Source: an uncultured bacterium (GTDB taxonomy: Bacteria > Patescibacteriota > Minisyncoccia > Phycocordibacterales > GWA1-40-21). Taken from it: a stretch of 64,000 nt of DNA. The position numbers and the translations under genes are program-made. The DNA is taken from the NCBI GenBank assembly GCA_963798465.1, contig CAWCTC010000001.1, forward strand, positions 464,465 through 528,464, read 5' to 3'. The notes beneath the pieces were generated by a model. That model ran no database searches, had not been told where the DNA came from, and saw only the letters and a list, made by a program, of their open reading frames with translations. Shown here piece after piece: positions 3,461 to 59,362 of this stretch (position 1 is the first letter of the stretch; the number at the start of each line of letters is the position of its first letter).

Positions 3461-3694
3461 TCTAATATGTTAGGCCTTTTCTCCACGAAATAAAATCATC
3501 CTTGTCATATTTTAAATACTACTATAAATTGAGCCAAATATAATTAATATAAACTCATGATTACACTTTCGATTTCTTACTAAATGGGTACCTATACTAA
3601 ATAGCACTTTCGAACCACTAAAGTACGGCTCTATTAAAGAATAAGAGAGCACTTTCATGCTCTCTAATCCTATCTTGCTCCGTCTCTAGGAACC

Positions 3695-3740
3695 GAACGG
3701 CACCTGAGAGGCTCTCAAATACCGTTAGGTTCGATTCCAG
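3695..3740. repeat. partial third copy (B) of the 5' module of the 117-bp repeat
   Basis: GAACGGCACCTGAGAGGCTCTCAAATACCGT differs from copy C at one position. It then continues tAGGTTCGATTCCAG against cgcGGTTCTTATTCCAG in copies A and C. Confidence 0.8.
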
Positions 3741-3790: not shown

Positions 3791-5824
3791 TTAAATCCTT
3801 AAACCCAATTCATTAGCAAAAAATGACAACATAAGCGCTTGTCCTTCAACTATTTTTGCAATAGGCTTTCCAGCACCGTGTCCGGCATCCATTTCAGTAA
3901 AGATAAGTACTTTATTTTCTTTATTTACAGATTGCAGCAGTGCTGTCATTTTCCTGGAATGAAGTGGATTAACTCTAGTATCTTTTTCAGCTGTTGTAAA
4001 AAGAAAATTCGGATATTCAATTCCTTGCACAACATTATGATACGGGCTCCACTTTAAAATATTTTCTAAATCTTTTTTTACTTCTGGATTTCCGTATTCA
4101 TGAACCCAACGAATAGCCATGCCGAATTTTGGAAATCTCACCATATCAGTAAGGGGAACGCGGGAACAAACAGCTTTAAATAAATCTGGACGTTGTACAG
4201 CGACTGCAGAAACAAGAAGTCCTCCGTTACTTCCTCCTAATATACCTAAATGATTTTTATTTGTATATTTTTTAGAAATTAAATATTCTGCTGCTGCGAT
4301 AAAATCATCAAAACAGTTTTGTTTATGTTCCATAATTCCATCCTTATGCCATTTGTCCCCAAATTCACCACCTCCGCGAATATTTGCTATTGCAAAAATA
4401 CAGTTTCTTTCCATCCAAGGTATCCAACCTCTTGAAAAAGAGGGGATTTCATTATTTCCGAAACCCCCATACCCATATAGGATAGTTGGATTATTTCCGT
4501 TTAGTTGCACATCTTTCTTATGATAGATAAACATCGGTACTTTTGTTCCATCTTTTGATATGCACCATTCCTGCTTTACAATATAATCATCCGGGTTTAT
4601 AGGATTATCAGTTTTTCTGTATAGTGAATATTCTTTTGTGTTTGGATCAAAGTGATAAAGAACTTTTGGAAAAGTAAAAGAAGTAACTCCATAAAAAAAT
4701 TCGTCTTCTTCTCTTCGTGAACTTAAACCGGCAAGGCTTGAATATTTTGGAAGAGGTATTGTTCCAATTTCTTTGCCAAAGCAATCAAAGATAATAACTT
4801 CGGAACAGGCATTTGTTAAATATTCAACAATAATTTTATCTTTTGTCAGGTGAGTTGATTGAATTGCTGAATTTCTTTCCGGAATAAGTTCTTCCCATTC
4901 ATCAATCGGTTTGTACAGGTCATCAAATGTTGTATAGAGAAACCTTCCATTATTTGCTTTGTAATTCGTATTAATAATAACTTTATCGCTAATAAACATA
5001 GGTGAAAATTCTGCCTTCATACCAACAATAAAAGGCTTTGTTTCTTTTGTTGTTGTGTTATACATGTATATATTGTTTTCAGTCCATGTTTGTCTTACGC
5101 TGATTGCCAGATATCTGCCATCAATGGAAGAGACAAGGCCGAACATGTCATCTTTTGGTCTTCCTTTACCAAAAATAAGTTCATCATTATCTGAATTATC
5201 TCCAAGTTTATGGAAATATACTTTCGAATGCAAATGTTCCTCGTTTTTTGGAACCGTTCCTGGTCGAGGATTCCTCGTATAGAAAAAACCTGTATCGTTT
5301 GGTAGCCAGCGAATAGATGCATATCTGCAATGAATTATTTTGTCATCCAAATTCTTATTTGTGTCAGTATCTATTACATATAAAGTTGCCATTTCATTAC
5401 CGCCTTCTGAAAGACCATATGCAATATACTTGCCCGAATGAGAATTATTCCAATAATCTAAAGTAATAGTATTGTTTTCTTTTAAACCGTTTGGATTCAC
5501 CAATTCAACTGGGACTCCGTTTAATCCTTTTTTCATATATAGAACGGCTTGATCTTGATTCGGTTGTCTTTCAGTATAAAAATAGCGACCATGTACTGGA
5601 ACTGGGTTTGAGAAAACGACCGCTTTAAAATTTTTAATAAGTTCAGCTGAAAATGTTTTAAAGATATCATTTTTCAAAACAGAGTCAGTATATTCATTTT
5701 GATTTTTTATCCAGTTCTTAACTTCAGGATCGTCTGCATTTTCTAACCAGCGATATGGATCAGATATTTTTATCCCTTGTATTTCATCTACGATATCTTC
5801 TTTTTTTGTTTTAGGAATATTCAT
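3791..5824 (-). CDS. prolyl oligopeptidase family serine peptidase (S9A)
   Basis: 677 aa. N-terminal DPYRWLEN, nucleophile elbow GGSNGGLL, C-terminal DTRV...GHGAGK. Typical POP beta-propeller plus hydrolase length. Confidence 0.9.
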   Translation of the reverse strand: MNIPKTKKEDIVDEIQGIKISDPYRWLENADDPEVKNWIKNQNEYTDSVLKNDIFKTFSAELIKNFKAVVFSNPVPVHGRYFYTERQPNQDQAVLYMKKGLNGVPVELVNPNGLKENNTITLDYWNNSHSGKYIAYGLSEGGNEMATLYVIDTDTNKNLDDKIIHCRYASIRWLPNDTGFFYTRNPRPGTVPKNEEHLHSKVYFHKLGDNSDNDELIFGKGRPKDDMFGLVSSIDGRYLAISVRQTWTENNIYMYNTTTKETKPFIVGMKAEFSPMFISDKVIINTNYKANNGRFLYTTFDDLYKPIDEWEELIPERNSAIQSTHLTKDKIIVEYLTNACSEVIIFDCFGKEIGTIPLPKYSSLAGLSSRREEDEFFYGVTSFTFPKVLYHFDPNTKEYSLYRKTDNPINPDDYIVKQEWCISKDGTKVPMFIYHKKDVQLNGNNPTILYGYGGFGNNEIPSFSRGWIPWMERNCIFAIANIRGGGEFGDKWHKDGIMEHKQNCFDDFIAAAEYLISKKYTNKNHLGILGGSNGGLLVSAVAVQRPDLFKAVCSRVPLTDMVRFPKFGMAIRWVHEYGNPEVKKDLENILKWSPYHNVVQGIEYPNFLFTTAEKDTRVNPLHSRKMTALLQSVNKENKVLIFTEMDAGHGAGKPIAKIVEGQALMLSFFANELGLRI

Positions 5825-5858
5825 ATTTTATTTAGTTTCTTAATAGAGACAAAAATCG

Positions 5859-5975
5859 AACGGCGCCTGAGAGGCTCTCAAATACCGTCGCGGTTCTTAT
5901 TCCAGGTGCCATCAAATTTTCGTCCCAGAAAAAACCTTATTTATACGCGTCTCGTGCTCGGCACGACTTGGCTCC
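5859..5975. repeat. 117-bp direct repeat, copy C (overlaps the last 7 nt of tRNA-Asn)
   Basis: See copy A. On the minus strand it lies directly downstream of tRNA-Asn and 35 nt upstream of the POP start codon. Confidence 0.9.
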
Positions 5976-6043
5976 GGAGACAGGGATCGAACCTGTGACC
6001 AATCGCTTAACAGGCGATTGCTCTACCGCTGAGCTACTCCGGA
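5969..6043 (-). tRNA. tRNA-Asn (GTT), CCA encoded
   Basis: Reverse complement is TCCGGAGTAGCTCAGCGGTAGAGCAATCGCCTGTTAAGCGATTGGTCACAGGTTCGATCCCTGTCTCCGGAGCCA. Cloverleaf with anticodon loop CTGTTAA and T-loop GGTTCGATCC. Confidence 0.95.
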
Positions 6044-9379: not shown

Positions 9380-10363
9380 ATGAATAATTTTTGGCAGAAA
9401 ATTTCGAAGAAAGGCGTTTTCTTCTGTTTGGCACCGATGTCTGATGTTACTGACATCGCTTTCAGGCAGATAATCGCAAAATACAGCAGACATGGAAAAC
9501 TTGGCGGAGGTCCTGGCGTTTTTTTTACCGAGTTTGTTTCTGCAGACGGTCTTGCATCAAAAGAAGGCAGACCAAAACTCTTGCCGATTTTGAAATTTTC
9601 CAAAAACGAAAAACCAATAATCGCGCAGATATTCGGTGCCAAACCGGAAAATATAAAAATCGCCTGCCAAATAATTTCCAAAATGGGTTTTGATGGAATT
9701 GATATCAATATGGGATGTCCTGATAAATCTGTCGTGAAGCAATGTGCTGGATCAGCTCTCATAAGAACGCCGGCTTTGGCTCAAGAAATAATTCGCGCAG
9801 CAAAAGCTGGAGCGCCAAAACTTCCGATTTCCGTTAAAACAAGAATCGGCTTTAATGTAATTGAATATAAAAAATGGCTACCGAAAATTCTCGCAGAAAA
9901 TATTTCTGCGCTTACAGTTCATCTTCGCACAAGAAAAGAAATGTCGAACGTTCCAGCTCACTTCGAACTTGCAAAAGATATTGTAAAAATTGTCCGTAAA
10001 TATGATAAAAAAGTTGTGCTCATTGCAAACGGCGATATTGAAAATCTGGAACAGGGAAGAAAGCTCGCAAAAGACGCCGGCTTTGATGGGATAATGATCG
10101 GCAGAGGAATTTTTGGAAATCCTTGGTTTTTTGATTCTAAAATTAAGTATGAAAATATTTCAACTGAAGAAAAACTTAAAGCACTTATTGAACACATAAA
10201 ACTTTTTGAAAAATTAATGAGTCATAGAAACGAAGCAAATATGAAAAAGCATTTTAAAGCTTACGTGAATGGTTTTGAAGGTGCAAAAGAACTCAGAGTA
10301 AAGCTTATGGGTGTGGAAAGTTTGAAAGGAGCGGAGACGATAATCAAATCTTATTTGAAATAA
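9380..10363 (+). CDS. dus: tRNA-dihydrouridine synthase (Dus family)
   Basis: LAPMSDVTDIAFRQI, GFDGIDINMGCP, HLRTRKEMS, GIMIGRG. Confidence 0.88.
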   Translation: MNNFWQKISKKGVFFCLAPMSDVTDIAFRQIIAKYSRHGKLGGGPGVFFTEFVSADGLASKEGRPKLLPILKFSKNEKPIIAQIFGAKPENIKIACQIISKMGFDGIDINMGCPDKSVVKQCAGSALIRTPALAQEIIRAAKAGAPKLPISVKTRIGFNVIEYKKWLPKILAENISALTVHLRTRKEMSNVPAHFELAKDIVKIVRKYDKKVVLIANGDIENLEQGRKLAKDAGFDGIMIGRGIFGNPWFFDSKIKYENISTEEKLKALIEHIKLFEKLMSHRNEANMKKHFKAYVNGFEGAKELRVKLMGVESLKGAETIIKSYLK

Positions 10364-17853: not shown

Positions 17854-17980
17854 GCGCCGCGGTTGACTTAGCGAAGTCACGTCGTACCACAGGAGTACTT
17901 CTTGTTTACTAAATCGCTGAGTACAGCTCATAAGTAAACAAAGTCGCACGACCGTCCTATAAGTGCGACACAGGCGGCGC
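17854..17980. ncRNA. GC-rich multi-hairpin element (unassigned) immediately after the GIY-YIG gene
   Basis: Closing stem GCGCCGC/GCGGCGC. Inner hairpins: TGACTT-agcg-AAGTCA, GTAC-cacagga-GTAC, TTGTTTACT...AGTAAACAA (itself containing GCTG-agta-CAGC), and GTCGCAC-13 nt-GTGCGAC. Confidence 0.4.
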
Positions 17981-23323: not shown

Positions 23324-24121
23324 ATGAATATAATCGAAGTAAAAAATCTTGTGAAGAAATTTGACGGCATCACAGCTGTTGATGATATTTCTTTCAATGT
23401 CGGAAAAGGAGAAATTTTCGCTTTTCTAGGTCCAAACGGCGCAGGAAAAACTACGACAATAAAAATATTGACGACTCTACTTAATCCGACTTCAGGAAGC
23501 ATCACTCTCGACGGACACGATCCTGTTACCGAACCGACTGAAGCAAGACGATCATTCGGAATCGTATTTCAAGATCCAAGTTTGGACGATGAGCTTACCG
23601 CTTGGGAAAATATGGAATTCCACGGAGTGCTTTATAAAGTTCCTAAAAAAATAAGACGAGAAAGAATAGAATACCTTATGAAATTTGTCGAAGTTTGGGA
23701 CAGAAAAGACAGCTTGGTGAAAGAATTTTCCGGTGGAATGAAAAGGAGATTGGAAATCGCCCGCGGACTTTTGCATCATCCAAAAATAATTTTCCTTGAT
23801 GAACCGACGACAGGTCTTGATCCGCAGACAAGAAACAGCATGTGGAATTATTTGATTGAATTGAACAAAAAAGAAGGCACGACAATTTTCTTCACAACAC
23901 ATTATATGGAAGAAGCTGAGAAAGTCGCACAGAAGATTTCAATCATGGATCACGGAAAAATAATCGCTTCAGGAACAGCAGAAGAGTTAAGAACACAGGC
24001 AAACAATGCCAGCTCGCTTGAAGAGGCATTTTTGAATTTCACCGGAAGAGATATCCGCCACGAAGATGCAGACGCAAGCGATGGAATGAGAATGAGGCAT
24101 ATGGCAAGAACAAGAAGATAA
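23324..24121 (+). CDS. ABC transporter ATP-binding protein (ABC-2/DrrA-like)
   Basis: GPNGAGKTTT, FSGGMKRRLEIA, IIFLDEPTTGLD. Confidence 0.9.
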   Translation: MNIIEVKNLVKKFDGITAVDDISFNVGKGEIFAFLGPNGAGKTTTIKILTTLLNPTSGSITLDGHDPVTEPTEARRSFGIVFQDPSLDDELTAWENMEFHGVLYKVPKKIRRERIEYLMKFVEVWDRKDSLVKEFSGGMKRRLEIARGLLHHPKIIFLDEPTTGLDPQTRNSMWNYLIELNKKEGTTIFFTTHYMEEAEKVAQKISIMDHGKIIASGTAEELRTQANNASSLEEAFLNFTGRDIRHEDADASDGMRMRHMARTRR

Positions 24122-24137
24122 TTTTCAAAAAATAAAA

Positions 24138-24244
24138 CTTGTTCCGTGTGAAATTCACCATAACACAAAATTTAGAGTAATAAACATAGAATCAATTAAT
24201 AAAAATTAGTCGAAATTATCAAAACATTAAAATTTCTTTACAGG
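24138..24244 (+). repeat. 107-nt leader repeat, copy 1 (ends at the ATG of the ABC-2 permease)
   Basis: CTTGTTCCGTGTGAAATTCA...ATCAATTAATAAAAATTAGTCGAAATTATCAAAACATTAAAATTTCTTTACAGG|ATG. Alignable end to end with copies at 27958 and 54441. Confidence 0.9.
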
Positions 24245-24991
24245 ATGACAACAATTTACATACTTTGGCTTAGACAAATGAAAAGATACTTCAGATCAAA
24301 ATCAAGAATGATTGGATCTCTTGCCCAACCCTTGCTATTCATGGTTGCTTTGGGTTTCGGACTCGGACCGGTTTTTGCAAAAGCAGGTGAAGGAAATTAC
24401 ATTAATTTTTTAGTTCCCGGAATCATCGGCATGAGCATAATTTTTTCCGCAGTATTTTCCGGAATAGAAATTATCTGGGACAAACAGTTCGGCTTTTTGA
24501 AAGAAACTCTTGTCGCGCCGGTTTCTCGTTTCAATATAATGCTCGGAAGGACACTCGGCGGAGCAACACAGTCCGTCATGCAAGGTTCTATTGTTTTTGT
24601 CATTTCACTTTTTATCGGTTTTCGCCCAACAAACTGGTATCTCATTCCTATATTTATTTTGCTTATGCTTCTCGTTGCTTTGCTTTTCACCGCAGTCGGA
24701 ACAATGATTGCTTCGCTTCTCGATGATATGCAAGGCTTCCAGCTCATCGTGAACTTCATGGTCATGCCATTATTTTTCCTATCTGGTGCAATTTTCCCTC
24801 TAACCGGTGTGTCAAAAGTATTGAGTTCAATCGCAGCTTTTGATCCGCTCGCATACGGAATCGACTCTTTCAGAGCCGTGCTTATAAATACAACAACATT
24901 CAGTTTGCATGTTGATGTAATAGTTTTATCAATAACAACTCTATTTTTCCTGTCGCTTGGAAGTTATTTCTTTACAAAAATACAGATTTAA
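24245..24991 (+). CDS. ABC-2 type transporter permease
   Basis: Six TM segments. Typical ABC-2 length, adjacent to its ATPase. Confidence 0.85.
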   Translation: MTTIYILWLRQMKRYFRSKSRMIGSLAQPLLFMVALGFGLGPVFAKAGEGNYINFLVPGIIGMSIIFSAVFSGIEIIWDKQFGFLKETLVAPVSRFNIMLGRTLGGATQSVMQGSIVFVISLFIGFRPTNWYLIPIFILLMLLVALLFTAVGTMIASLLDDMQGFQLIVNFMVMPLFFLSGAIFPLTGVSKVLSSIAAFDPLAYGIDSFRAVLINTTTFSLHVDVIVLSITTLFFLSLGSYFFTKIQI

Positions 24992-25014
24992 AAAACGCTA
25001 AAATTTTTTTATGG

Positions 25015-25040
25015 GTGCTGCGGTAGTCCGCGGCACTTTT
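25015..25040 (+). terminator. intrinsic terminator (GTGCTGCGG-tagt-CCGCGGCAC + TTTT)
   Basis: 9-bp stem with one G-U pair, tetraloop, T-run. Confidence 0.75.
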
Positions 25041-25140
25041 GTTTCGTTTTGATTTGTAACAGCGCACAAAAAGCCTTTTCATCCGTATTAAATTGCGTAT
25101 ACTGGCCAAAATGCGCTTTTGTGTAAAAGCTGAATGATTG

Positions 25141-25149
25141 TGATATAAT
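25141..25149 (+). promoter_or_regulatory. extended -10 element TGATATAAT
   Basis: 45 nt upstream of ATG 25194. No clear -35. Confidence 0.4.
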
Positions 25150-25193
25150 TTGACGAGCATCTTTAATTTTTATTAGATTAATTTAATTTTCAA

Positions 25194-27341
25194 ATGAAAA
25201 ACATTAAAAAAATCTCCATTGCAATCATCTCCTTAGCAATATTTTTATTCGCAAGCAATGTTTTCGCGATGACTCCGTCATTTTCAGTGTCATCCGATCC
25301 AAACGTCAATACTATTGCTAATTTGAATATCACAGGAGATGCAAACTCAAGCATAGTTCTGTACTATTATTCTGCAAATGTCTCCGGTCCACAGCTAAAA
25401 TATATCGGAAACACAAATTCATCTGGTACATATTCTTCCGGCATATCTTTAAATGATTACAATATCACGCAAAATAGTAACATTTATGTTTTGGTTGACG
25501 GAGTACAATCAAATTCAATCGCGTGGCCTTACTCTTCAACAGTCACATCTTCAAATAATCTGACTTTCAGCCAAACAAGCATCGCAACGATGGTCGGACA
25601 ATCTACAACAATTACTGCATCGAATAATGGAACAGCATCACTTTATTTGTCCAGCAATACAAATCCTCAAGTCGCAAATTTTTCAATCAGCGGAAATCAA
25701 ATATCAATAACAGGTTTGTCAGCAGGACAAACAACTGCAAATTTTTGTTATATAACCACGAACACTTCCACTACAAACTGCGCAAGCGTTTATGTTATTG
25801 TGCAAAATTCCGGAACTGCATTACTTTCTTTCAGTCAAAATAATACTTCAATAATCAACGGACAGAATGTTTCAATAAGTATAACTGGAGGAAATGGATT
25901 TTACCAAATTGAAAATAATTCAAGTTCAACTGTAATAAGTACGAGCTTAACTGGCCCGACACTCACTCTTTATGCAATTGGAGCGACAGGTTCAAGCACA
26001 ATAACAGTCTGCTCCACAGATATGAACTCTTGCGGAAATGTCGTCGCCTCAGTCGGAACATATACGACAACAGGAAGCGGACTTTCTTTGAGCCAAAATT
26101 ATCCGACTGTCATAATGGGACAAACTCAATCAATAACAATAAGCGGAGGTTCCGGAAATTATTATATTTCATCAAACTCAAATACGAATATTGTGCAAAC
26201 ATATATTTCCGGCAATACAATTTCAATTTACGGCGGAGCTCCAGGAAATTCTACAATTATAGTCTGCGCACCATCGGGAGAATGCGGAACGATAAATGCA
26301 ATGGTTGCAAGCGCATCAGGTGGAGCACTTTCACTCAGTCAGACAAGTTTGAGTTTGATGACCGGACAAATAATAAGTGTCACAATTTCTGGAGGCACAG
26401 CTCCATATTCAATAATTCAAAGTAATGATGGCAAGGCTCAATACAGCTTAAGCGGAAGTATTGTCACCGTCACAGGAGTTTCTGCGGGAAATTCTTCCGC
26501 GACAATCTGTTCTGCCGGCGGAGCATGCATAACACTCGCAGTAACCGTAACAGGAAATGTAACAAGTTCAACCGCTTCAGGAGTTCAGCCGGCATTCAGC
26601 CAGAATAATTTTTCAATGAACACAAATCAGACTGTCGCAGTTTATTTGTCAGGTAATGGCGGATATTATGTTTCAAATAATTCAAATCCAAATATTATCT
26701 CGGCAGCCGTCAGTGCAAACAGCGTCGTCATATTCGGAATAAATGTCGGCTCGGCAAATGTCACAGTTTGTCAAACGGGAGGACAATGCAATACTATTTA
26801 TCTCACCGTCAGCAACTCGACAACAGCGACAGTCAGTTCTGCTCCTTTAACTTTTGACAAATCATCTGTAAATATGAATGTCGGAGACACGACTGATATA
26901 AATGTAACAGGAGGGTCTGGAGTTGGATATTATATTTCGTACAATTCAAATTCAAATGCAATCGGAGTTTATGTAAACGGAGGTGAATTGATTATTACAG
27001 GAAAAGCTGCAGGTTCTGGAACTTTATCAGTCTGTTCGTCATCAAATGTTTGTGCTTCCATTTCGGTAGTTGTAAATCAAGTTGCACAAACAACTTCTTC
27101 CGCAACAACATCAACAGTTGGCGATGGATATGTCTTTTCAGTGCACTTGGAATACGGAATGACAAGCAAAGTCGTGACAGAATTGCAAAAAAGATTGACT
27201 GCAAAGGGAGTTTACACCGGACCAATAACAGGATATTATGGCTCGCTAACAACTGCAGCAGTAAAATTGTTTCAAAAGGAAAACAATCTTGAACAACTTG
27301 GCTCAGTCGGTCTTGGAACGAGAGCAGCTTTGAACAAATAA
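25194..27341 (+). CDS. secreted repeat protein (six ~80-aa Ig-like repeats) with C-terminal peptidoglycan-binding domain
   Basis: Signal peptide present. Repeats have the form LS(L/F)SQ...ISGG.G.YYIS.NSN...G..T..VC...G.C. The C-terminus TELQKRLTAKGVYTGPITGYYGSLTTAAVKLFQ is PG_binding_1-like. Confidence 0.75.
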   Translation: MKNIKKISIAIISLAIFLFASNVFAMTPSFSVSSDPNVNTIANLNITGDANSSIVLYYYSANVSGPQLKYIGNTNSSGTYSSGISLNDYNITQNSNIYVLVDGVQSNSIAWPYSSTVTSSNNLTFSQTSIATMVGQSTTITASNNGTASLYLSSNTNPQVANFSISGNQISITGLSAGQTTANFCYITTNTSTTNCASVYVIVQNSGTALLSFSQNNTSIINGQNVSISITGGNGFYQIENNSSSTVISTSLTGPTLTLYAIGATGSSTITVCSTDMNSCGNVVASVGTYTTTGSGLSLSQNYPTVIMGQTQSITISGGSGNYYISSNSNTNIVQTYISGNTISIYGGAPGNSTIIVCAPSGECGTINAMVASASGGALSLSQTSLSLMTGQIISVTISGGTAPYSIIQSNDGKAQYSLSGSIVTVTGVSAGNSSATICSAGGACITLAVTVTGNVTSSTASGVQPAFSQNNFSMNTNQTVAVYLSGNGGYYVSNNSNPNIISAAVSANSVVIFGINVGSANVTVCQTGGQCNTIYLTVSNSTTATVSSAPLTFDKSSVNMNVGDTTDINVTGGSGVGYYISYNSNSNAIGVYVNGGELIITGKAAGSGTLSVCSSSNVCASISVVVNQVAQTTSSATTSTVGDGYVFSVHLEYGMTSKVVTELQKRLTAKGVYTGPITGYYGSLTTAAVKLFQKENNLEQLGSVGLGTRAALNK

Positions 27342-27364
27342 TTTTATTTTTGGTTTAATAAAAA

Positions 27365-27940
27365 ATGGAAAAAACGGATGAACAGCTGGTAGAAAATTAT
27401 CTGGAAGGAGATGAAAATTCATTCAATGAAATTGTAAATCGATATTTAAAACCTATTTACAATTTTGCATACAGGCTAGTAGGAAATCAGAAAGAAGCCG
27501 AAGATATCTCGCAGGAAATTTTCTTAAAAGTCTGGAAAAATTTAAAAAGATTCAATGCAAAAAAAAGTTTCAGGACTTGGATTTTTTCCATTGCAAAAAA
27601 TACTTGCATAGATCATCTTCGAAAAAGGAAAGATGTGCCGATGTCAGCGTTTGACAATGACGACGGGGGAAATGTCATCGAAGATACATTAGTCGACGAG
27701 GAATTGAAGCCGGACGAAATATTCGCCATCAGTCAAAACAAACTGAATGTAGAAAAAATTATGGAAGCATTAACGATTGTGCAAAAAGAAGTAATTGTCC
27801 TTAAATATATGAATGAAATGTCATTATCAGAAGTTGCTGAAGTCATGAAAATACCGATAGACACCGCAAAAAGCCATCATGGAAGAGCTTTGCAAAAATT
27901 GAGAAAATCAATAATAAATGCACCCAAATTATCAAAATAA
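27365..27940 (+). CDS. ECF-type RNA polymerase sigma factor (sigma-70 family)
   Basis: AEDISQEIFLKVWKNL (region 2) and MSLSEVAEVMKIPIDTAKSHHGRALQKLR (region 4). Confidence 0.88.
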   Translation: MEKTDEQLVENYLEGDENSFNEIVNRYLKPIYNFAYRLVGNQKEAEDISQEIFLKVWKNLKRFNAKKSFRTWIFSIAKNTCIDHLRKRKDVPMSAFDNDDGGNVIEDTLVDEELKPDEIFAISQNKLNVEKIMEALTIVQKEVIVLKYMNEMSLSEVAEVMKIPIDTAKSHHGRALQKLRKSIINAPKLSK

Positions 27941-27957
27941 ACGTATAGACCATTGTA

Positions 27958-28064
27958 CTTGTCCCGTGTGAAATTCAGCGCAGTATAAAATTCAGAAAAA
28001 TAAGCATAAAATCAATTAATAAAAATTAATCGACATTATCAAAACATTAAAATTTCTTTACGGG
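27958..28064 (+). repeat. 107-nt leader repeat, copy 2 (ends at ATG 28065)
   Basis: CTTGTCCCGTGTGAAATTCAGCGCAG...ATCAAAACATTAAAATTTCTTTACGGG|ATG. Confidence 0.9.
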
Positions 28065-28466
28065 ATGAAAAACGAAAATCAATTATTCAGCATGATAGAA
28101 CCTAGTGGAAATCTAAAAAGTTCTATTATGGAGAAAATCAGAAAAGAGGAAATAAAAAAAGCCACATATGAAGTGGTTCTCAGTTCTGCTGCATCTTTGG
28201 TTTCCATATCGGCCGCAATTTTTTTTGTAATCAGCATAGTCAGAGATGCATATCAATCCGGGCTTTCTGAATATCTTTCTCTTATATTCTCAGATGGCGC
28301 ATCGTTGATATCTTATTGGCAATCATATATCATGTCTATCATAGAATCGCTGCCAATACTTCAAATTACGATTTTTTTCGCTTCAATCTGGGTTTTTGCA
28401 TGGTCTCTAAATAAAGCGATGACAATATTTAAAAATACGAGAGCAATTTTTTATAAGGTAAATTAA
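28065..28466 (+). CDS. membrane protein, putative anti-sigma factor
   Basis: Assigned from its position downstream of the ECF sigma gene and its TM segments. No diagnostic motif. Confidence 0.35.
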   Translation: MKNENQLFSMIEPSGNLKSSIMEKIRKEEIKKATYEVVLSSAASLVSISAAIFFVISIVRDAYQSGLSEYLSLIFSDGASLISYWQSYIMSIIESLPILQITIFFASIWVFAWSLNKAMTIFKNTRAIFYKVN

Positions 28467-30991: not shown

Positions 30992-31765
30992 ATGATTGAA
31001 TGCAAAAATATTAAAAAAGATTACGTAAATGGTGATGAAGTGACTAAGGCCGTTAAAGGCGTTTCATTTACGATCCAAGATGGGGAATTCGTCGCAATCA
31101 TGGGACCATCGGGTTCGGGAAAGTCCACACTAATGCACATTCTTGGAGCACTTGATACTCCAACTTCTGGCCAATATTTTTTGGATGGAAAAGATGTTTC
31201 CAAACTTACAGATGATGAACTTTCAGATATCCGAGCAAATCAAATCGGATTCGTATTTCAATCCTTCAATCTTCTGCCAAGAACAGAAGTTATTAAAAAT
31301 GTTATTCTCCCTTTAATTTATTTGAAAGTTGATCCGGATGAAAGAATAAAAAGAGCGGAACAAGCGCTGTTATCAGCTGGACTTGAACAAACTAGATGGC
31401 ATCATCTTTCAAACCAGCTTTCCGGAGGACAGATACAGCGTGTAGCGATTGCAAGAGCTCTTGTAAACGAACCGTCGCTCATAATGGCAGACGAACCGAC
31501 TGGAAACTTGGACACAAAAACAGGTGAAATTGTTTTAAAAACTTTTCAAGATTTAAATAAAAAAGAAGGTCACACAATTATTCTCATTACACACGAGCTT
31601 GATATTGCAGAACATGCTGACAGGATTATTCACATCAGAGATGGAATAATTGTCAGCGATGAAAAAAATAAAAATAAAAGAATTAGTAACATATCGTTGT
31701 GTGAAAATGAAAATGAAGAAAAAATTACAGCTGAATGCAGCGAAATAGTTAAACAAAAAAATTAA
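30992..31765 (+). CDS. ABC transporter ATP-binding protein (MacB/LolD-like)
   Basis: [36 protein letters not shown]. Confidence 0.9.
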
Positions 31766-31766
31766 A

Positions 31767-32995
31767 ATGACAATACGAGACTTACTAGATCAAACATCAA
31801 CAGGATTATTGAGCAATAAAGTGCGCACGGGCCTTACTATGCTCGGTATTGTTATCGGTGTATCTTCCGTTATCGCTATGCTTGCAATAGGAAACGGCTC
31901 ATCAAATTCCATTCAATCAAAAATTGAATCTATCGGTTCAAATCTTGTCGAAGTCACTACCCGGAGCTCCGAGATCTGTCGGAACTCAAGTCAGAGCAAG
32001 TAGTGGTTCGGCAAATACTTTAACTATGGAGATGTTACTGCTATATCCAGTCAAATTCCAGATGCAGAAGCAGTTGCTGCTGTCTGTAACGTATCAGAGA
32101 ACAAGTTGTTGCGCCAGGAACGAATACAAACACATCCATTATAGGACGTAACTCCGGCATATATGGACAGTAAGAGATGTCAGCGTTGATACAGGAACTT
32201 TTTTTACAGATGATCAAGTTACAAGTTTGGCAAAAGTTGCAGTTCTCGGTCCGACAACAGAAGCTGATCTTTTTGCTGCAGATGTTGATCCAATCGGACA
32301 AACGATAAGAATAAACGGAAATGTATTTACAGTTATAGGTATTACCACATCAAAAGGTGGATCTGCGGGAAATACAACTGACGATGAAATATATATTCCG
32401 CTTACAGTTGCTCAGCAATATTTTATCGGAAATCAATATGTTTCAAATATAAGCATAGAAGCAAAAACTTCGGAACTTGTCACAAATGTTCAAAATGAGG
32501 TTACGGCATTATTATTGCAGAGACATAATATTTCCGATCCGACAAAAGCAGACTTCAGCACTTTAAATCAATCTGATATTTTGTCTACAGCTTCTTCAAT
32601 CACAGGAACAATGACAGCTTTGCTTGCGGCAATTGCTGGAATATCTTTGCTCGTCGGAGGAATTGGAATTATGAACATGATGCTCACAACCGTCACAGAA
32701 AGAACAAGAGAAATCGGTTTGAGAAAAGCTATCGGTGCAAAAAAAGGAGATATTCGTCTGCAATTTTTAATTGAATCAATGATGCTTACAATCATCGGCG
32801 GAATAATTGGAATTATAATAGGCATGGCAATATCGTGGATATTGACGCTTACTGGTATGCTCGAGGCCGATGTTTCTTTTATGTCTGTAATATTAGCATT
32901 CGGAGTCTCGACGCATTATCGGAGTCATATTCGGATATTATCCGGCAGCAAGAGCTTCAGATTTGAATCCTATTGAAGCGTTAAGATATGAATAA
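31767..32995 (+). pseudogene. MacB/FtsX-family ABC permease, disrupted by several frameshifts
   Basis: Fragments in three frames read [25 protein letters not shown] / [22 protein letters not shown] / ...LAKVAVLGPTT...TERTREIGLRKAIGAKKGDI.... The last 25 codons ([26 protein letters not shown]) are in another frame after about 32905. Confidence 0.85.
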
Positions 32996-33002
32996 TATAA
33001 AT

Positions 33003-37005: not shown

Positions 37006-37372
37006 AATACATTGACATTTAAAATGATTTAGTTTACACTCTTAGTAACTTTAAAACGAATGTGTTGCGGGCGAAAGTGCCAAATATATCAGGCTGGATT
37101 AAGTTGCTAAACGTCTTGCTTAGAAAAATAAGTTAAAAATTAAAGAGGAAAAGATAAACCTTAGGTGAAAGGTGTGTCTTTTTTGTTTTTGATTTTTCCT
37201 ACAAAGGAAAATCATGATGAAAGAATTTTTAAATATGAAGTATTTTAAAATTCTTTGGCTTAATTTTTAAAAATCGTATTTATTTTTTTGTGCGGGAAGT
37301 TTGAATTTATATCTGACAAATTTTATTAATTTATTAATCGATAGCGTCGCGCTAAAAAAACGATTGTGCGAC

Positions 37373-40631
<3,259 letters not shown>

Positions 40632-40676
40632 GATGAAATACAAATATTGAAAGTCAAAAATATAATTTCAACAAAT

Positions 40677-44318
<3,642 letters not shown>

Positions 44319-44459
44319 AAAATGATTGCCGATGTACAAAAGCAGTTCGAAGGCGAGAATGCAGATTTTTAATAATCCGCGCATTTTGGGAGTGATTAAT
44401 AATTAAATCACATTGTGCAATAAGTTATAATTGTTGCAATATGATTTCGCAAACATCAT

Positions 44460-44482
44460 CGCGCTTATAGGACGGTTGCGCA
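44460..44482 (+). promoter_or_regulatory. hairpin with 13-nt loop TTATAGGACGGTT upstream of dnaG (loop shared with 17943-17969 on the opposite strand)
   Basis: CGCGC-TTATAGGACGGTT-GCGCA here, against GTCGCAC-TTATAGGACGGTC-GTGCGAC at the other site. One stem position changes A-T to G-C. Confidence 0.35.
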
Positions 44483-44500
44483 CGTAATTTCGCTAAATTA

Positions 44501-46245
44501 ATGTCATCTTCCGTAGAACAAATAAAAGAAAGATTGAATATCGAGGAAGTTGTCGGCTCTTATATCAAGCTTGAAAGAGCTGGCAACAGTCTCAAAGCAA
44601 AGTGTCCTTTTCACAACGAAAAGACGCCGTCTTTCTTCGTGTCTCCGGAGAGAGGAAGTTATTATTGTTTCGGATGCGGAGCAAAAGGGGATATATTCAC
44701 TTTTGTGGAGGAGTTTGAAGGAATTGATTTTCTCGGAGCATTAAAAATTCTTGCTGACAAAGCTGGAGTTCAATTTGAAAAATTCAGTCGAAAACAACCG
44801 ATAAAAAAGAAAGATTGTATCAGCTTCTCGAAGCAACAACGTTTTTTCTTGAAAAGAAATCTTGAGTGCGGAAGAAATTCCTCTTGAATATTTGAAAAAA
44901 AGAGGGCTTCACTGAAAAAACAATTAAAGATTGGCGAATCGGATATGTGCGCGATGAATGGCGATCAATTTCAGATTATTTGAAATCAAAAGGTTTTACT
45001 GAAAGCGAAATGGAGCGCGCCGGAATTACAAAGACAGAAGGCAAAAGCACTTACGACAGATTCCGCGGACAGAATTATGTTTCCGATTTTTGACAGAGCA
45101 GGAAGAGTCATCGCATTTTCCGGAAGAATACTTCATGATGACGGAAAATCCGCAAAATATCTGAATTCTCCGCAAACGGAAATTTTTGATAAGTCAAAAG
45201 TTCTCTATGGATATGATCGTGCAAAACAATCAATTAGAAAATTTGATTTTTCTATTCTTGTAGAAGGTCAGATGGATTTGCTGATGTGCGCATCAAGCAG
45301 GATTTACAAATACTGTCGCATCAACAGGAACAGCGCTTACCGAACAGCATTTGGCATTATTAAAAAGAATTTCAAACAAAATAATAATGTCATTTGACTC
45401 CGACAATGCAGGCGCAAAAGCTGCCGAAAGAGGCTGGGCAATCGCGCTTTCAAACGGTATGGATGTAAAAATCGCCGAAATTCCAAAAGGATATGATCCG
45501 GCAGATTTAATATTGAAAGATAAGGAAAAATTTAAAGAAGTTTTGAAAAATTCAATTTTTCTAATCGATTTTTTGCTAAACAGAGTGGAATCTGAAATTA
45601 CGGATAAAAAGAAATTATGGGAAGCGATAAAAACAAAGGTCCTGCCTTATGTTTATCTGCTTGATGGAAATACGGAAAGAAGCAGATATGTTAAAAAAAT
45701 ATCTGAAACAATCGGAATCAAAGAAGATTTCATATGGGATGATTTGAAAAAAGTAAAACTTGATGAAGAATTCCAAATCAAAAGCGGTCAGGAAGAAAAC
45801 AAAACAATAGAAAAAGAAATAAGCTCGGATATTTTGAAAAAAGGTTCCGTGGAAAGAAGTCTGGCAAGCATCATGGCAAAAGAAGAAAGTGAAAAAAATG
45901 ATATTGAATATCTGAAAGACAAAATTAAAAATATAATAGGCACGGAAAAATTCAAGGAATTTGAAAAAGAATACAAAAATAAGGCAAATGAGCTGGCATT
46001 CGAGGCCGAAGGATACTACGGACCGGCGGATGAAAAGAGATTGCGGGAAGAAACCGAATATCTCCTGCTAAATCTTCGCGAAGAAGATTTTAAAAAAGAA
46101 TTGGAAAAACTTTTAACAGATCTGAAAGAAAGCCGAGAAAGAAAAAACGGCTGAAATGATAAGTTCAATATCAATAAGGTTGAAAGAAATAATGGAAAAG
46201 CTAAGTGAGATAAGAGCTGAAAAAAATAATTTTTATAAGAAATAA
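44501..46245 (+). pseudogene. dnaG: DNA primase, frameshifted
   Basis: Zinc finger CPFHNEKTPSFFVSPERGSYYCFGCGAKGD. Toprim region ILVEGQMDL...SFDSDNAGAKAAERG lies in other frames. The C-terminal 30 codons are in yet another frame, ending at TAA 46243-46245. Confidence 0.88.
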
Positions 46246-46261
46246 TTTAAAATAAAATAAA

Positions 46262-47462
46262 ATGCCAAAAATAACAAAGAAAAAAATCAAAAAAGTTTCT
46301 AAAAGCAAAGCAAAGCCGGTAAAAAAATCAAAGGAAACTGTCAAAAAAATAAAAACTGTCAAATCAAAGCCGGTAAAAGTAACTTTAAAACAGAAGGAAC
46401 TTGATACAAAAGCCAATAGACTCATAGCGAAGGGAAAAGAGAGAGGATTTATCACTTATGATGAAATTTTGAAAGAATTTCCAAAAGTTGAGGATGATGT
46501 TATTTTTCTTGATGACCTTTATAATAAGCTTGTTGTCGCAGGAATCGACGTACTTGAAGGAGGCGGAATGCTTGAAGTTGACGATGAACAGCTTAAAAAA
46601 TATTCACTTATGGAAGTCGCTCACCAGATGCCGGTTATGATTCTATCCAGATTTATTTGAAAGAAATCGGACAATATCCGCTTATCAGTGCTTCAATGGA
46701 AAAAGATCTTGCAAGAAAAATTCAGCAGGAGATCATAGAAGCAAAAGGTCTTCTGGCAAAAGCAAACTTTCGACTCGTGGTTTCTATCGCAAAAAAATAT
46801 GTCGGGAGAAGCGCCGACCTTACACTTTTGGATTTGATTCAAGAAGGAAACTTGGTCTTTTCAAAGCTGTAGATAAATTTGATTGGACAAAAGGTTTTAA
46901 ATTTTCAACTTACGCAACTTGGTGGATTCGCCAAGCTATCACAAGAGCACTTGCAGACCAATCAAGAACAATTCGCGTTCCTGTTCACATGGTTGAAACA
47001 ATTGCAAAATACAAACAGGTTTACAGAAGACTTTCCCAAGATTTGGGCAGAGAACCTTTGTCCGAAGAAATCGCAACTGAAATGGGACTTGATGTAGATA
47101 AAGTTTATATGATTGAAAAAATCGACCAAGACACAATTTCTCTTGAAGCTCCAGTCGGAGATGATGATGACGGAAAATCAACTCTTGGAGATTTCGTTGC
47201 AGACGATAAAATACTTTCTCCGGATCAGGAATCTTCAAGAAGAATTCTTTCGGATCAAGTCAAAGAAATTTTGAACGACCTTTCACTCAAAGAAAGAAAA
47301 ATTCTTGAAATGAGACATGGATTGAATGATGGCATAACTCATACACTTGAAGAAGTCGGACTTGAATTCGGCGTTACAAGAGAAAGAATCAGACAGATTG
47401 AAGCAAAAGCTCATGAAAAAATAAGACAGCATGAAAAAATAAATAGACTCCAAAGCTATTAG
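46262..47462 (+). pseudogene. rpoD: RNA polymerase sigma factor RpoD, frameshifted
   Basis: Lys-rich N-terminus. Then [70 protein letters not shown]. At least four frame changes. Confidence 0.9.
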
Positions 47463-47630
47463 TTCATTTTATTTTAAATTTAATAGGGGTAGGGCTTCTC
47501 TCATATACAGTGTCGCAAAAGATATATTGTGCGACACTACAACAATTAAGTAATCCACCATTCCCTTCATAAGGATTAATCGCTAATCCTAAAATCAAAG
47601 ATTATTATTTCCTTTTCAAAAAGCTAGCAT

Positions 47631-50488: not shown

Positions 50489-50543
50489 TGTTTTTTCGAA
50501 ATCACGTCTCCGCGGTTGCCATTCTCGCGCGACGCTATTCTTA

Positions 50544-54279: not shown

Positions 54280-54440
54280 AACTAGCCAATTTTGTAAGGA
54301 AAAACCCCACTTTTTCTGCACTTTTATATAAAAGTATCGATTTTTGTAGTGGCAAAAATCATCCACAACTTAAACACAGATTGTTCTATCTTCCTAGATT
54401 GCGGATATTCAAAATGCCGTGATAAAATTGTCTTTGTTAA

Positions 54441-54546
54441 CTTGTCCCGTGTGAAATTCAACACTGTACAAAATTTAGAGTAATAAATATAGAATCAATT
54501 AATCAAAACAGTCGAGTTTATCAAAACATTAAAATTTCTTTACGGG
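54441..54546 (+). repeat. 107-nt leader repeat, copy 3 (106 nt, ends at the ATG of dnaB)
   Basis: CTTGTCCCGTGTGAAATTCAACACTG...TATCAAAACATTAAAATTTCTTTACGGG|ATG. Confidence 0.9.
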
Positions 54547-55926
54547 ATGGCAACAGAAATCAGAAAAATAAATATAAGAATTCCTCCGCAAAATATTGAA
54601 TCGGAAAGAGCACTTTTGGGTTCCATAATGCTCCGTCCAGAAACTCTAGCTGAAATCATGGACATACTTCGCCCTGAAGCTTTTTATGCCGACAAGCATA
54701 AAACTATTTTTGAGGCGATGACTCATTTGTATGAAAGAAGAGAGCCAATAGACTTGCTGACTCTTTCTTCCAAACTGAAAGAATCCGTCGATCTGGATAG
54801 AATCGGCGGAATGAGTTATCTCACTGAAATGGTAAACTCGGTTCCCTCTTCCTCAAATGCAGAACATTATGCCGAAATAATTTCCAAAAAATATACCATG
54901 CGCAGACTTATAGAAGCTGCTGAAGGTATTGTAAAAATAGGTTATGATGAAGAAAGTCAAATTGAAGAACTTTTAGATAAAGCTGAGAAAAAACTTTATG
55001 AGGTGACAAGCAAAAATCTTTCTGGAAAATATGTAGAAATGAAAGATGTTTTGGGCGAGGCAATGGAAAGACTCGACAGACTTCACAAAACTAAAGGCGA
55101 ACTTCGCGGAGTGCCGACGGGTTTCAAAGATTTGGACAACAAGCTTTCCGGTTTCCAAAATTCAGATTTAATTATTTTGGCCGCTCGACCTTCCATGGGA
55201 AAAACTTCTCTAGCTTTGGATATCGCGAGAAATGCTTCAATCCGCCACAATATTCCGACTGCAATTTTTTCTCTTGAAATGAGCACTCAACAGCTCGTCG
55301 ACAGAATGCTTTCTGCCGAATCAAAAGTTGATGCATGGAGATTGAGAACAGGAAAACTTTCTTTGGAATCAGAATTCGAACAGATCAGAGCATCGCTTGA
55401 TCCACTTTCAAAAGCGCCTCTTTATATCGACGATCAGGCTGCAAATAATATTTTAAAAATCCGTTCAGTCGTCCGAAGATTGAAACACGAAAAAAATCTC
55501 GGATTGGTAATCATCGATTATTTGCAGCTTATGACACCAGTCAATACAAAAGGTGGAGACAATGTCGTCCAGCAAATTACGGAAATTTCCCACTCTTTAA
55601 AACAGCTTGCAAAAGAATTCGACATTCCAGTCCTCGCGCTTTCACAACTTTCAAGAGCTGTTGAACAGCGAGGCGGCAAGCCAAGACTTTCCGATTTGAG
55701 AGATTCAGGTTCCATCGAACAGGATGCAGATGTAGTGATTTTTATACACAGAGATGCAAACGACGAAGGCGGTGGTAAAAAACAAACGGCAGAAATAATG
55801 ATTGAAAAGCACAGAAACGGTCCGACGGGCAAAGTCGAATTATTCTTTGATGCCGACAAATCATCTTTCCTTTCCGTAGACAACTCGGCTCAATTCGGCG
55901 ATTTTAACCAGACAGGAACATTTTAG
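54547..55926 (+). CDS. dnaB: replicative DNA helicase
   Basis: PPQNIESERALLGS, ILAARPSMGKTSLAL, IDYLQLM, SQLSRAVEQR. Confidence 0.93.
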   Translation: MATEIRKINIRIPPQNIESERALLGSIMLRPETLAEIMDILRPEAFYADKHKTIFEAMTHLYERREPIDLLTLSSKLKESVDLDRIGGMSYLTEMVNSVPSSSNAEHYAEIISKKYTMRRLIEAAEGIVKIGYDEESQIEELLDKAEKKLYEVTSKNLSGKYVEMKDVLGEAMERLDRLHKTKGELRGVPTGFKDLDNKLSGFQNSDLIILAARPSMGKTSLALDIARNASIRHNIPTAIFSLEMSTQQLVDRMLSAESKVDAWRLRTGKLSLESEFEQIRASLDPLSKAPLYIDDQAANNILKIRSVVRRLKHEKNLGLVIIDYLQLMTPVNTKGGDNVVQQITEISHSLKQLAKEFDIPVLALSQLSRAVEQRGGKPRLSDLRDSGSIEQDADVVIFIHRDANDEGGGKKQTAEIMIEKHRNGPTGKVELFFDADKSSFLSVDNSAQFGDFNQTGTF

Positions 55927-55948: not shown

Positions 55949-56314
55949 ATTGTCATTCCCGCGGAGGCGGGAATCCATTCTTCTGAATTAATTTATGAGT
56001 AAAAATTATTACGTTTATATTTTAGCAAGCGGAAGGAACGGAACATTATATATAGGAGTTACAAATAATTTATTACGGAGAATATATGAACATAAGAATG
56101 GTTTGATTGACGGTTTTACAAAAAAGTATAATGTTAAGATGTTGGTATATTTTGAATCAACCGAAGATATAGCAAGTGCGATAGCGAGAGAAAAAGCTTT
56201 GAAAAAATGGAATAGAAGTTGGAAGATAAGTCTGATACAAAGTGTGAATCCAGAGTGGAACGATTTGAGTTTAGAATTATAAGAATGGATTCCCGCCTCC
56301 GCGGGAATGACAAT
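55949..56314. mobile_element. GIY-YIG gene bracketed by perfect 34-bp inverted repeats (putative selfish cassette)
   Basis: ATTGTCATTCCCGCGGAGGCGGGAATCCATTCTT at 55949-55982 is the exact reverse complement of 56281-56314. Each arm also contains the hairpin TTCCCGC-ggag-GCGGGAA. Confidence 0.7.
55995..56282 (+). CDS. GIY-YIG nuclease superfamily protein (UPF0213-like)
   Basis: YYVYILASGRNGTLYIGVTNNLLRRIYEHKNG...AREKALKKWNRSWK. Confidence 0.88.
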   Translation: MSKNYYVYILASGRNGTLYIGVTNNLLRRIYEHKNGLIDGFTKKYNVKMLVYFESTEDIASAIAREKALKKWNRSWKISLIQSVNPEWNDLSLEL

Positions 56315-59247: not shown

Positions 59248-59362
59248 AAGATTTGGTGTATATTAGATATATTAATGTTAAAAGATAAAGGTAATTCTGC
59301 CAAAATTATTTACGGGGTTTTCCATGAGTCTAATTTTAACAAATTAAAATAAAAAAGGAAAT

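Follow-up and report, generated by a model that had tools for sequence, protein, structure and literature searches.

Start-codon-flush repeats in a Paceibacteria lineage: an inserted, MITE-type element family that may serve as a mobile leader

What kind of sequence ends, copy after copy, exactly where the start codon of an otherwise unrelated gene begins? The question is raised by a 64,000-nucleotide (nt) stretch of DNA from an uncultured member of the Patescibacteria, also known as the candidate phyla radiation (CPR) (contig CAWCTC010000001.1, positions 464,465 to 528,464; the whole stretch is referred to here as the window). A preliminary description had noted three copies of a 107-nt repeat in it and had suggested a mobile promoter or leader cassette, a shared cis-regulatory RNA, or an RNA-processing element. 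Our comparison with related genomes places the repeat in a clade-restricted, noncoding family of ~107 bp, of the type of miniature inverted-repeat transposable elements (MITEs), in a few related Paceibacteria. We lean toward the view that it is a mobile leader, landing at the junction between transcription start and start codon and being transcribed as a new leader of the gene behind it.

The three copies align end to end and stand where they had been placed, all on the + strand; our coordinates begin one base earlier once an invariant A is counted (Table 1). Their termini are conserved, as had been claimed, with a 20-nt 5' block and a 29-nt 3' block each occurring exactly three times in the window, against zero occurrences expected from 100 dinucleotide-preserving shuffles of the window. 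In each case the next base begins the ATG of a substantial open reading frame (ORF), and the placement of copy 1 between an ABC ATPase gene and that of its permease agrees with the gene positions. Copy 2 precedes the gene of a 133-aa protein without a Pfam match, a putative anti-sigma factor to judge by its position after an extracytoplasmic function (ECF) sigma factor gene. A fourth, diverged copy, overlooked in the preliminary description, lies at the 5' end of pyrG and belongs to a second subfamily, treated below. The element is 106 to 111 nt long and contains no ORF, and there are four copies per 64 kb; all four share one orientation, although the affected genes are on opposite strands.

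Further copies were sought by exact-pattern scans of species-representative genomes and metagenome contigs, using patterns inside the 3' block that placed no constraint on its final 3 to 15 nt or on the ATG. They came from Patescibacteria only: the metagenome-assembled genome (MAG) bog_1341 (PLOL01), the Paceibacterota MAG SO_2017_LW1_54 (JBBACS01), and contigs from peat, freshwater, and digesters. Scans of viral contigs gave no matches or chance matches only. MAG bog_1341, to which the window is ~96% identical over 6.7 kb, carries at least five copies. An nhmmer profile built from 15 copies and searched against the window and all collected loci (designated by L numbers) gave 21 occurrences, including 18 from the public scans; 18 are nonidentical, and 13 different genes lie downstream. 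The relation to the start codon seen in the window holds throughout, since all 21 are flush with an ATG: every occurrence ends in ...TTTAC[GA][GT][GT], followed by the ATG of a real ORF. These ORFs encode ABC-2 and MacB-type permeases, the product of the gene behind the sigma factor, DnaB, a HAD-like hydrolase, an exonuclease, a helicase, and small membrane proteins, and they share no functional theme. Apart from one truncated copy and a weak match that led to the second subfamily, the profile found no degenerate or displaced copies in the window and the loci. The truncated copy (L020, positions 819 to 888, - strand) has kept its 3' 70 nt and lost its 5' arm; it still abuts an ATG, that of a membrane-protein gene homologous to the gene behind a full copy in L012. 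The two elements in L002 share one orientation, as do the two in L017, and this uniformity hints at strand-specific insertion.

The copies arrived by insertion, as can be read from syntenic contigs of relatives that lack them and whose proteins are 78 to 92% identical to those of the window. Such relatives give clean empty sites for subfamily 1 at four loci, and at all four the native spacer precedes the element and the native ATG follows it, leaving the protein unchanged. Behind the ABC ATPase gene, the relatives have 5 to 12 nt and then the permease ATG (empty in L023 and L025), whereas the window has a 15-nt spacer, the element, and the same ATG. Behind the sigma factor gene, L023 and L025 are empty with a spacer of 15 to 16 nt, and the window has a 16-nt spacer, the element, and the ATG; L017 holds a copy at the site orthologous to that of copy 2. 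The MacB-type ATPase/permease pair is empty in the window (Table 1) and filled in L021, where the element is flush with the orthologous permease ATG. At dnaB, the empty loci L040 and L041 read TTGCGG...TGATAAAAT, 10 nt, ATGGCAACA; the window has the same promoter, 11 nt, the element, and then ATGGCAACA. In all, five loci occur in both filled and clean empty states among related genomes. The proposal that the repeat is MITE-like has therefore held up well: it is short, noncoding, and present in multiple copies, it has terminal inverted repeats, and it is polymorphic for presence and absence.

Permease homologues are almost uniformly 248 aa long; the ATG behind the element is therefore where the permease starts natively, and its protein sequence is not altered. 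The idea that the ATG belongs to the element was rejected for subfamily 1, whose empty sites retain the ATG and the N terminus; it is true for subfamily 2. The interiors of the copies cluster by genome and not by locus: the two copies in L017 (L017a and L017b) are 94% identical, while the orthologous pair of window copy 2 and L017a is 75% identical. A CCTG/CAGG double variant is found at two loci of one genome. Together, this clustering, the shared variant, and the absence of the element from close relatives point to recent spread or gene conversion. The genes that flank the copies are core housekeeping genes in conserved synteny.

In the alignment, near-invariant blocks at the 5' end (ACTTGTCCCGTGTGAAATTCA), in the middle (TAGAATCAAT and GTCGA), and at the 3' end (TTATCAAAACATTAAAATTTCTTTACGGG) are separated by variable stretches. 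The preliminary description had seen imperfect inverted repeats closing a stem with the AUG at its base, and 15 pairs including the start codon are indeed predicted: a lower stem of 9 bp, flush with the AUG, is separated by a conserved 1x2 internal loop from an upper stem of 6 bp. On the + strand there are three invariant G.U pairs, and the two outermost pairs (U.G and G.U, both invariant wobbles on this strand) lie within the start codon. Across 17 copies of both subfamilies, these 15 pairs are 97.6% paired. The covariation that had been proposed as a check is present, with four pairs changed on both sides (CG to UA, CG to AU, UA to CG, and AU to UA). These degrees of pairing and covariation were reached by none of 500 shuffles, and slid registers fell to 46 to 58% paired; C.A mismatches occur in three sequences. 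RNAalifold returned one conserved structure, this long-range terminal stem (with 14 pairs), leaving the 70-nt interior unpaired; the count of 15 takes in two additional pairs as well as subfamily 2. The terminal stem alone recurred when both strands were folded, and the fold energies of the window copies are unremarkable (z = +0.4, -2.3, and -0.7). The element also contains two boxes that may function as -10 promoter elements, to judge by their letters: a near-invariant TAGAAT in the interior and a TAAAAT within the conserved 3' block (Table 1). The TAAAAT box was part of both collection patterns, so that its invariance is ascertained by the search. Scans of copies 2 and 3 found no consensus sigma-70 promoter on the + strand, no -35/-10 pair, and no terminator.

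How genes ordinarily start in this lineage was surveyed in 127 genes from the window and related loci (L002 to L025). A core resembling the Shine-Dalgarno (SD) sequence is present at -18 to -5 in 7 of these 127. The earlier remark that the copies lack an SD sequence is thus true, but the lack is a property of the lineage and not peculiar to the element. Hexamers resembling a -10 box (TAnnWT) peak 6 to 9 nt before the ATG (39% of genes, against ~1% per position at internal ATGs), with a shoulder at 11 nt; they are often extended (TGnTAnnnT), and no -35 consensus emerges among the surveyed starts. Because SD sequences are rare and -10 boxes lie 6 to 11 nt before the ATG, transcripts of this lineage are probably leaderless or nearly so. 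The insertion point of the element would then be the junction between transcription start and start codon, since -10 boxes stand so near the ATG in an apparently leaderless lineage.

Native promoters are retained at filled sites. The dnaB promoter upstream of copy 3 (Table 1) is near-identical to the one that stands 10 nt before the dnaB ATG in L040 and L041. Extended -10 boxes lie 8 nt ahead of the first base of the element in L016 (TGATATAAT) and L009 (TGATAAACT). The orthologous copies in L002 and L009, whose ends are identical and whose interiors are 56% identical, both retain TGNTANACT 7 to 8 nt before the element. As native promoters are still directly upstream, the element would be transcribed as a 5' leader, and its 5' arm would form the extreme 5' terminus of the transcript.

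The second subfamily has two members, the pyrG copy in the window, with arms CCCCGTGTGAATTT and AAATTATTTACGGGG, and one in L002 (positions 4684 to 4796). The genes they affect, pyrG in the window and a trxB-like gene in L002, are both on the strand opposite to the element. The native layout of pyrG is seen in L040, L041, and L042, which lack the element and read TGNTAAAAT, 7 nt, ATGGAAA...; for the L002 copy, L009 provides the clean empty site. The element entered pyrG ~8 nt past the A of the original ATG, that is, inside the ORF. It supplies a replacement in-frame ATG and ~15 codons, and PyrG gains a 20-aa N-terminal extension, ~15 codons of which lie inside the element; the CTP_synth_N Pfam match begins at residue 21. 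The displaced native features were located by comparison with L040 to L042 (Table 1). The N-terminal extensions are homologous in the window (MSNLKPSENSHGAG...) and L002 (MNLKSKQSKNSHGAR...). TTTTC is the invariant flank of this subfamily, and its copies have TATAAT or TAATAT 12 nt ahead of the internal ATG.

In the mobile-leader reading that we favor, the native promoter or upstream cistron stays intact, and the whole element would be transcribed as a 5' leader or as an intercistronic spacer. Its inverted ends would pair in the RNA, and the stem would hold the 5' end of the mRNA, or the upstream stop codon, next to the AUG at its base. The two internal -10-like boxes may contribute promoter activity. 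The presence of the element may affect expression of the gene behind it. Of the earlier suggestion of a mobile promoter or leader cassette, the leader part fits the empty sites, the clustering by genome, and the covarying ends, and the promoter part is plausible.

Several points weigh against this reading. There is no target-site duplication of 2 nt or more, although an A on both flanks allows a 1-nt duplication; the empty sites belong to other species, with spacers that differ by 0 to 1 nt. No transposase was found among the ORFs of the window, and no long element with these ends that could be an autonomous partner was found in the window or the collected loci. The L020 copy, which lacks the 5' arm, indicates that the stem is not always required, and an AUG inside a stem would normally inhibit initiation. 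The public scans required an exact 3' block, so that decayed copies elsewhere in those genomes would escape. Lastly, random insertion followed by survival cannot account for the position of the copies at start codons at 13 of 13 sites; some targeting or strong selection is needed.

The intergenic DNA of the window amounts to 7.8 kb and holds 183 ATGs that are not start codons (both strands), against ~76 start codons, and the profile search found no copy in neutral intergenic DNA in the window or the other loci. Within the interval of 7 to 10 nt from the -10 box to the ATG, the flush position alone is in use. Either the element aims at this position when it inserts, or expression of the gene survives only where the copy is flush.

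The same junctions also hold other sequences. One, which we call motif Z, is a ~50-nt two-hairpin repeat (RTCGCGC-loop-GCGCGAY, then GUGAUUUCGCAAAAUCA) that occurs at dnaG, rplI, and rpoB in the window (Table 1) and in L005 to L008, L012, L013, and L023. Its ends are flush with a start codon or are followed by an intrinsic terminator; 6 of its 13 pairs show compensatory changes, and it has no Rfam match. At the dnaB site of L042 (~9920 to 10000), a motif-Z-like segment of ~70 nt is flush with the ATG. The ATPase/permease site of L024 (1877 to 1983) holds an unrelated segment of 105 nt, also ATG flush, which ends in the hairpin TTAATAT-TTTCGC-ATATTAA. Both repeats occur together in L005 and L012, where motif Z is followed by the 107-nt element and this, exactly, by the ATG. 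The 107-nt element, the motif Z variants, and the L024 segment all have a helix that ends at the AUG. It is conceivable, as a tentative proposal, that the junction between transcription start and ATG is a specific, or the only viable, landing site for small elements of at least two unrelated families. If so, there would be a mobility mechanism that aims at transcription-start sites or start codons; alternatively, ribosomes adapted to leaderless mRNAs would need or tolerate an AUG at the base of a helix, either because it resembles an AUG at the 5' terminus or once the RNA has been processed.

Among the other explanations, a portable promoter survives best, and we consider it unlikely though worth keeping in view. 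A -10 box of the element's own (TAAAAT and/or TAGAAT) would drive a transcript with a short leader, and the inverted repeats would serve transposition only. Such a promoter fits the near-invariance of both boxes, the native genes with -10 boxes 6 to 11 nt before the ATG and no clear -35, the truncated L020 copy whose 3' 70 nt still abut an ATG, and the -10-like box 12 nt before the internal ATG of subfamily 2. It would also correspond to the concept of putative mobile promoters (PMC3488235). Native promoters, however, would be needless if the element supplied one, and they are kept directly upstream even in the old pair of L002 and L009. In old copies whose interiors are 56% identical, moreover, the 5' arm is 100% conserved; the consensus scan of copies 2 and 3 lacks a + strand promoter, and the 11-nt spacing of TAAAAT is at the edge of the native distribution.

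A cis-regulatory RNA of the host, in which the long-range stem hides the AUG until it is opened by heat, by a factor, or, in translational coupling, by a ribosome terminating at the upstream stop codon, and in which the element is kept for regulation and mobility is incidental, appears to us improbable. The stem does covary and includes the AUG, the sense strand alone accommodates its three invariant G.U pairs, old orthologous copies have conserved ends, and operon-internal copies have the upstream stop codon 0 to 16 nt before the 5' arm. Yet the downstream genes are functionally unrelated, and close relatives run the same genes without the element. The strand compatible with the wobbles is antisense to the gene in subfamily 2, three sequences have C.A mismatches, the L020 copy has no 5' arm, and the interior has neither conserved structure nor more than ordinary fold energies. 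With no Rfam match in addition, the earlier suggestion of a shared cis-regulatory RNA is unlikely.

It is still less probable that the terminal duplex is a processing signal, cut by RNase III or another nuclease so as to restore a leaderless or near-leaderless mRNA. The hairpins that Correia elements form in Neisseria mRNAs are RNase III substrates, the two-part stem is flush with the AUG, and the lineage appears to translate leaderless mRNAs. CPR bacteria, furthermore, retain RNase III and RNase J (PMC12641178). On the other side, RNase III substrates are typically longer than this duplex, no self-cleaving ribozyme family matches, and the L020 copy has no stem. Finally, a recombination site that folds as single-stranded DNA, of the attC or IS200/IS605-end type, whose hairpin and bottom-strand CAT are read by a site-specific or HUH enzyme, is very improbable: the pairing conserved beyond sequence alone, the conserved asymmetry of the arms, the lack of a target duplication, the invariant flanks (ATG in subfamily 1 and TTTTC in subfamily 2), and the single orientation within the window (four copies), L002 (two), and L017 (two), even with genes on opposite strands, fit it, but attC core sites (RYYYAAC / GTTRRRY), a cassette array, and local subterminal hairpins are absent, no integrase or TnpA genes were found nearby and no tnpA/tnpB was seen, and a 3-nt target alone cannot explain the exclusive use of start codons.

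How does the element compare with systems already described? We regard it as near in kind to the Correia and ERIC elements and to the putative mobile promoters. Correia repeat enclosed elements (CREE) of Neisseria and enterobacterial repetitive intergenic consensus (ERIC) sequences of Yersinia are alike in being ~100 to 150 bp long, noncoding, and multicopy, with terminal inverted repeats. Repeats of this type are cotranscribed into mRNAs and are able to form hairpins there. The present element is unrelated to them in sequence, shows no TA duplication, and has no known autonomous partner; its copies are all start-codon flush in an apparently leaderless lineage, and members of subfamily 2 contribute both the start codon and the first codons of the gene. 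Rickettsia palindromic elements (RPE) are small palindromic repeats that insert in frame into protein-coding genes and add residues. They parallel subfamily 2 in pyrG and the trxB-like gene, but they lie within ORFs, are not known to supply start codons, and are unrelated in sequence and hosts. Integron attC sites resemble the element in their imperfect inverted repeats, conserved asymmetric bulge, variable center, size, and place just before an ORF. The identification as an attC site was nevertheless rejected: the element has the termini ACTTGTCCCG...TACGGG, without R''/R' core sites (RYYYAAC...GTTRRRY), integrase, or cassette array, and its flanking genes are syntenic core genes. Palindrome-associated elements derived from IS200/IS605 would have local subterminal hairpins, insertion 3' of a fixed short target, no duplication, and a strand bias; the present element shows a fixed flank (ATG, or CAT on the other strand), no duplication, and a uniform orientation, has no local terminal hairpins, and came with no tnpA or tnpB. 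Putative mobile promoters were described as similar stretches of ~100 nt directly upstream of nonhomologous genes within a genome (Matus-Garcia et al. 2012, PMC3488235), and in an example from Treponema brennaborense the conservation starts at about -5 relative to the start codon (PMC3488235). The homologous sequence found here before 13 unrelated genes matches that description. The category is based on similarity alone, whereas in the present case empty sites demonstrate insertion, the junction can be placed to the single base, and the gene's own promoter persists upstream. Our search of the literature on MITEs or leaderless translation in CPR bacteria found nothing specific.

Some narrower identifications were tried and set aside. 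The preliminary description could match the repeat to no known riboswitch or ribozyme, and Rfam likewise returned nothing on the elements, either in the whole window at gathering thresholds or in three element-bearing loci at E values up to 10. A self-cleaving ribozyme is not supported, on that ground and for the lack of conserved pairing in the interior; nor is a riboswitch or other structured class of cis-regulatory RNA, the terminal stem alone being conserved and no curated family matching. Reading GGGAUG as a CsrA site or as SD-like fails on the L006 copy, which has GUGAUG, and the L020 copy, which has GGUAUG. A CRP-like site in TGTGAAATTCA would have its second half-site within a variable region, and a DnaA box in TTATCAAAA matches at 7 of 9 positions and has no supporting context.

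Two observations on public records touch the element. L007 (~2855 to 2970 in reverse-strand view) and L019 (3821 to 3935), both of one bog population, are 99.7% identical over 2.7 kb through the element and part ways right after ATGAAA: one continues into an exonuclease gene, the other into the MacB-type permease that was expected. Either element copies have recombined, or the assembly is chimeric at the repeat. Separately, an identical permease is called at 248, 237, 227, and 216 aa in public records (P0001, P0002, P0003, and P0006), probably because the true start, directly behind the element, lacks a ribosome-binding site.

The window has other features that are recorded here in passing. 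There are at least three reading-frame changes within 1.5 kb of rpoB (in the region 37395 to 47500), the region of rpoC, dnaG, and an rpoD-like gene is split into many short ORFs, and the MacB-type permease gene after 31767 (31767 to 33000) is fragmented; these broken ORFs are due either to assembly or sequencing error or to something odd, the rest of the window being intact. A conserved noncoding stretch of ~100 nt (17868 to 17969, - strand) is 91% identical to L007, has its core in L022 and L023, and includes a motif-Z-like hairpin, GUGACUUCGCUAAGUCA; it has no Rfam match and may be an unannotated small RNA. A 117-nt repeat occurs twice with 97% identity (1026 to 1142 and 5859 to 5975), the second copy abutting the 3' end of a tRNA-Asn gene (5969 to 6043, - strand) and the first adjoining a sequence like a tRNA 3' end. 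A palindromic 35-nt repeat occurs three times (1021 to 1055, 3691 to 3725, and 5854 to 5888) and flanks a prolyl-oligopeptidase gene on both sides. A stand-alone GIY-YIG gene (95 aa, 55995 to 56282, + strand) lies between dnaB and a 205-aa ORF (56392 to 57009) that we take to be a putative recR by length and synteny. No gene separates dnaB from recR in L040, L041, and L042, and the GIY-YIG gene of L041 stands elsewhere; that of the window looks like a small mobile nuclease gene.

Table 1. Positions in the window of the elements, their parts, and associated start-site features
Feature	Position	Strand	Context
Element copy 1 (subfamily 1)	24137-24244	+	Between ABC ATPase (23324-24121) and ABC-2 permease ATG (24245); nhmmer E = 1.9e-26
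Element copy 2 (subfamily 1)	27957-28064	+	Between ECF sigma factor (27365-27940) and 133-aa gene (ATG 28065)
Element copy 3 (subfamily 1)	54440-54546	+	Directly 5' of dnaB ATG (54547)
Subfamily-2 element	59207-59317	+	Within 5' end of pyrG (- strand)
5' arm of copy 3, TGTCCCGTG-T-GAAATT	54443-54458	+	Equivalents at 24140-24155 and 27960-27975
3' arm of copy 3, AATTTC-TT-TACGGGATG, including ATG	54533-54549	+	Equivalents at 24231-24247 and 28051-28067
Internal TAGAAT box (-10-like), near-invariant	54490-54495	+	~52 nt before ATG; sole variant TAAAAT, in copy 2
TAAAAT box (-10-like)	54530-54535	+	11 nt before ATG, within conserved 3' block
Retained native dnaB promoter	54399-54428	+	TTGCGG, 15-nt gap, TGATAAAAT (18-nt spacer to TAAAAT); 11 nt before first base of element
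Empty MacB-type site	31763-31769	+	ATPase stop and permease ATG (TAAAATG); no element in window
Replacement pyrG start codon	59245-59247	-	In frame, inside subfamily-2 element; reads out through arm
Original pyrG ATG	59323-59325	-	Now heads 15-codon upstream ORF that stops inside element
Native pyrG extended -10, TGTTAAAAT	59333-59341	-	From comparison with L040-L042
Motif Z	37340-37391	+	6 nt before rpoB ATG (37398)
Motif Z	44456-44500	+	Abuts dnaG ATG (44501)
Motif Z	50489-50533	-	Abuts rplI ATG (50488)

To our knowledge, transcription start, translation start, and mobile DNA are almost unstudied in the CPR/Patescibacteria, which are uncultivated and have minimal genomes. The locus described here gives direct sequence evidence for a lineage that is largely free of SD sequences and probably leaderless. 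It also offers a natural and dated series of leader insertions, in which the same genes occur without a leader, behind the 107-nt element, and behind a hairpin leader of another kind. A practical outcome is that gene callers mis-start genes behind the element. Should the exactness of the junction be due to targeting, the family would insert with a specificity of a new kind; should it be due to selection, it would reveal a structural rule by which ribosomes adapted to leaderless mRNAs translate mRNAs that have a leader.

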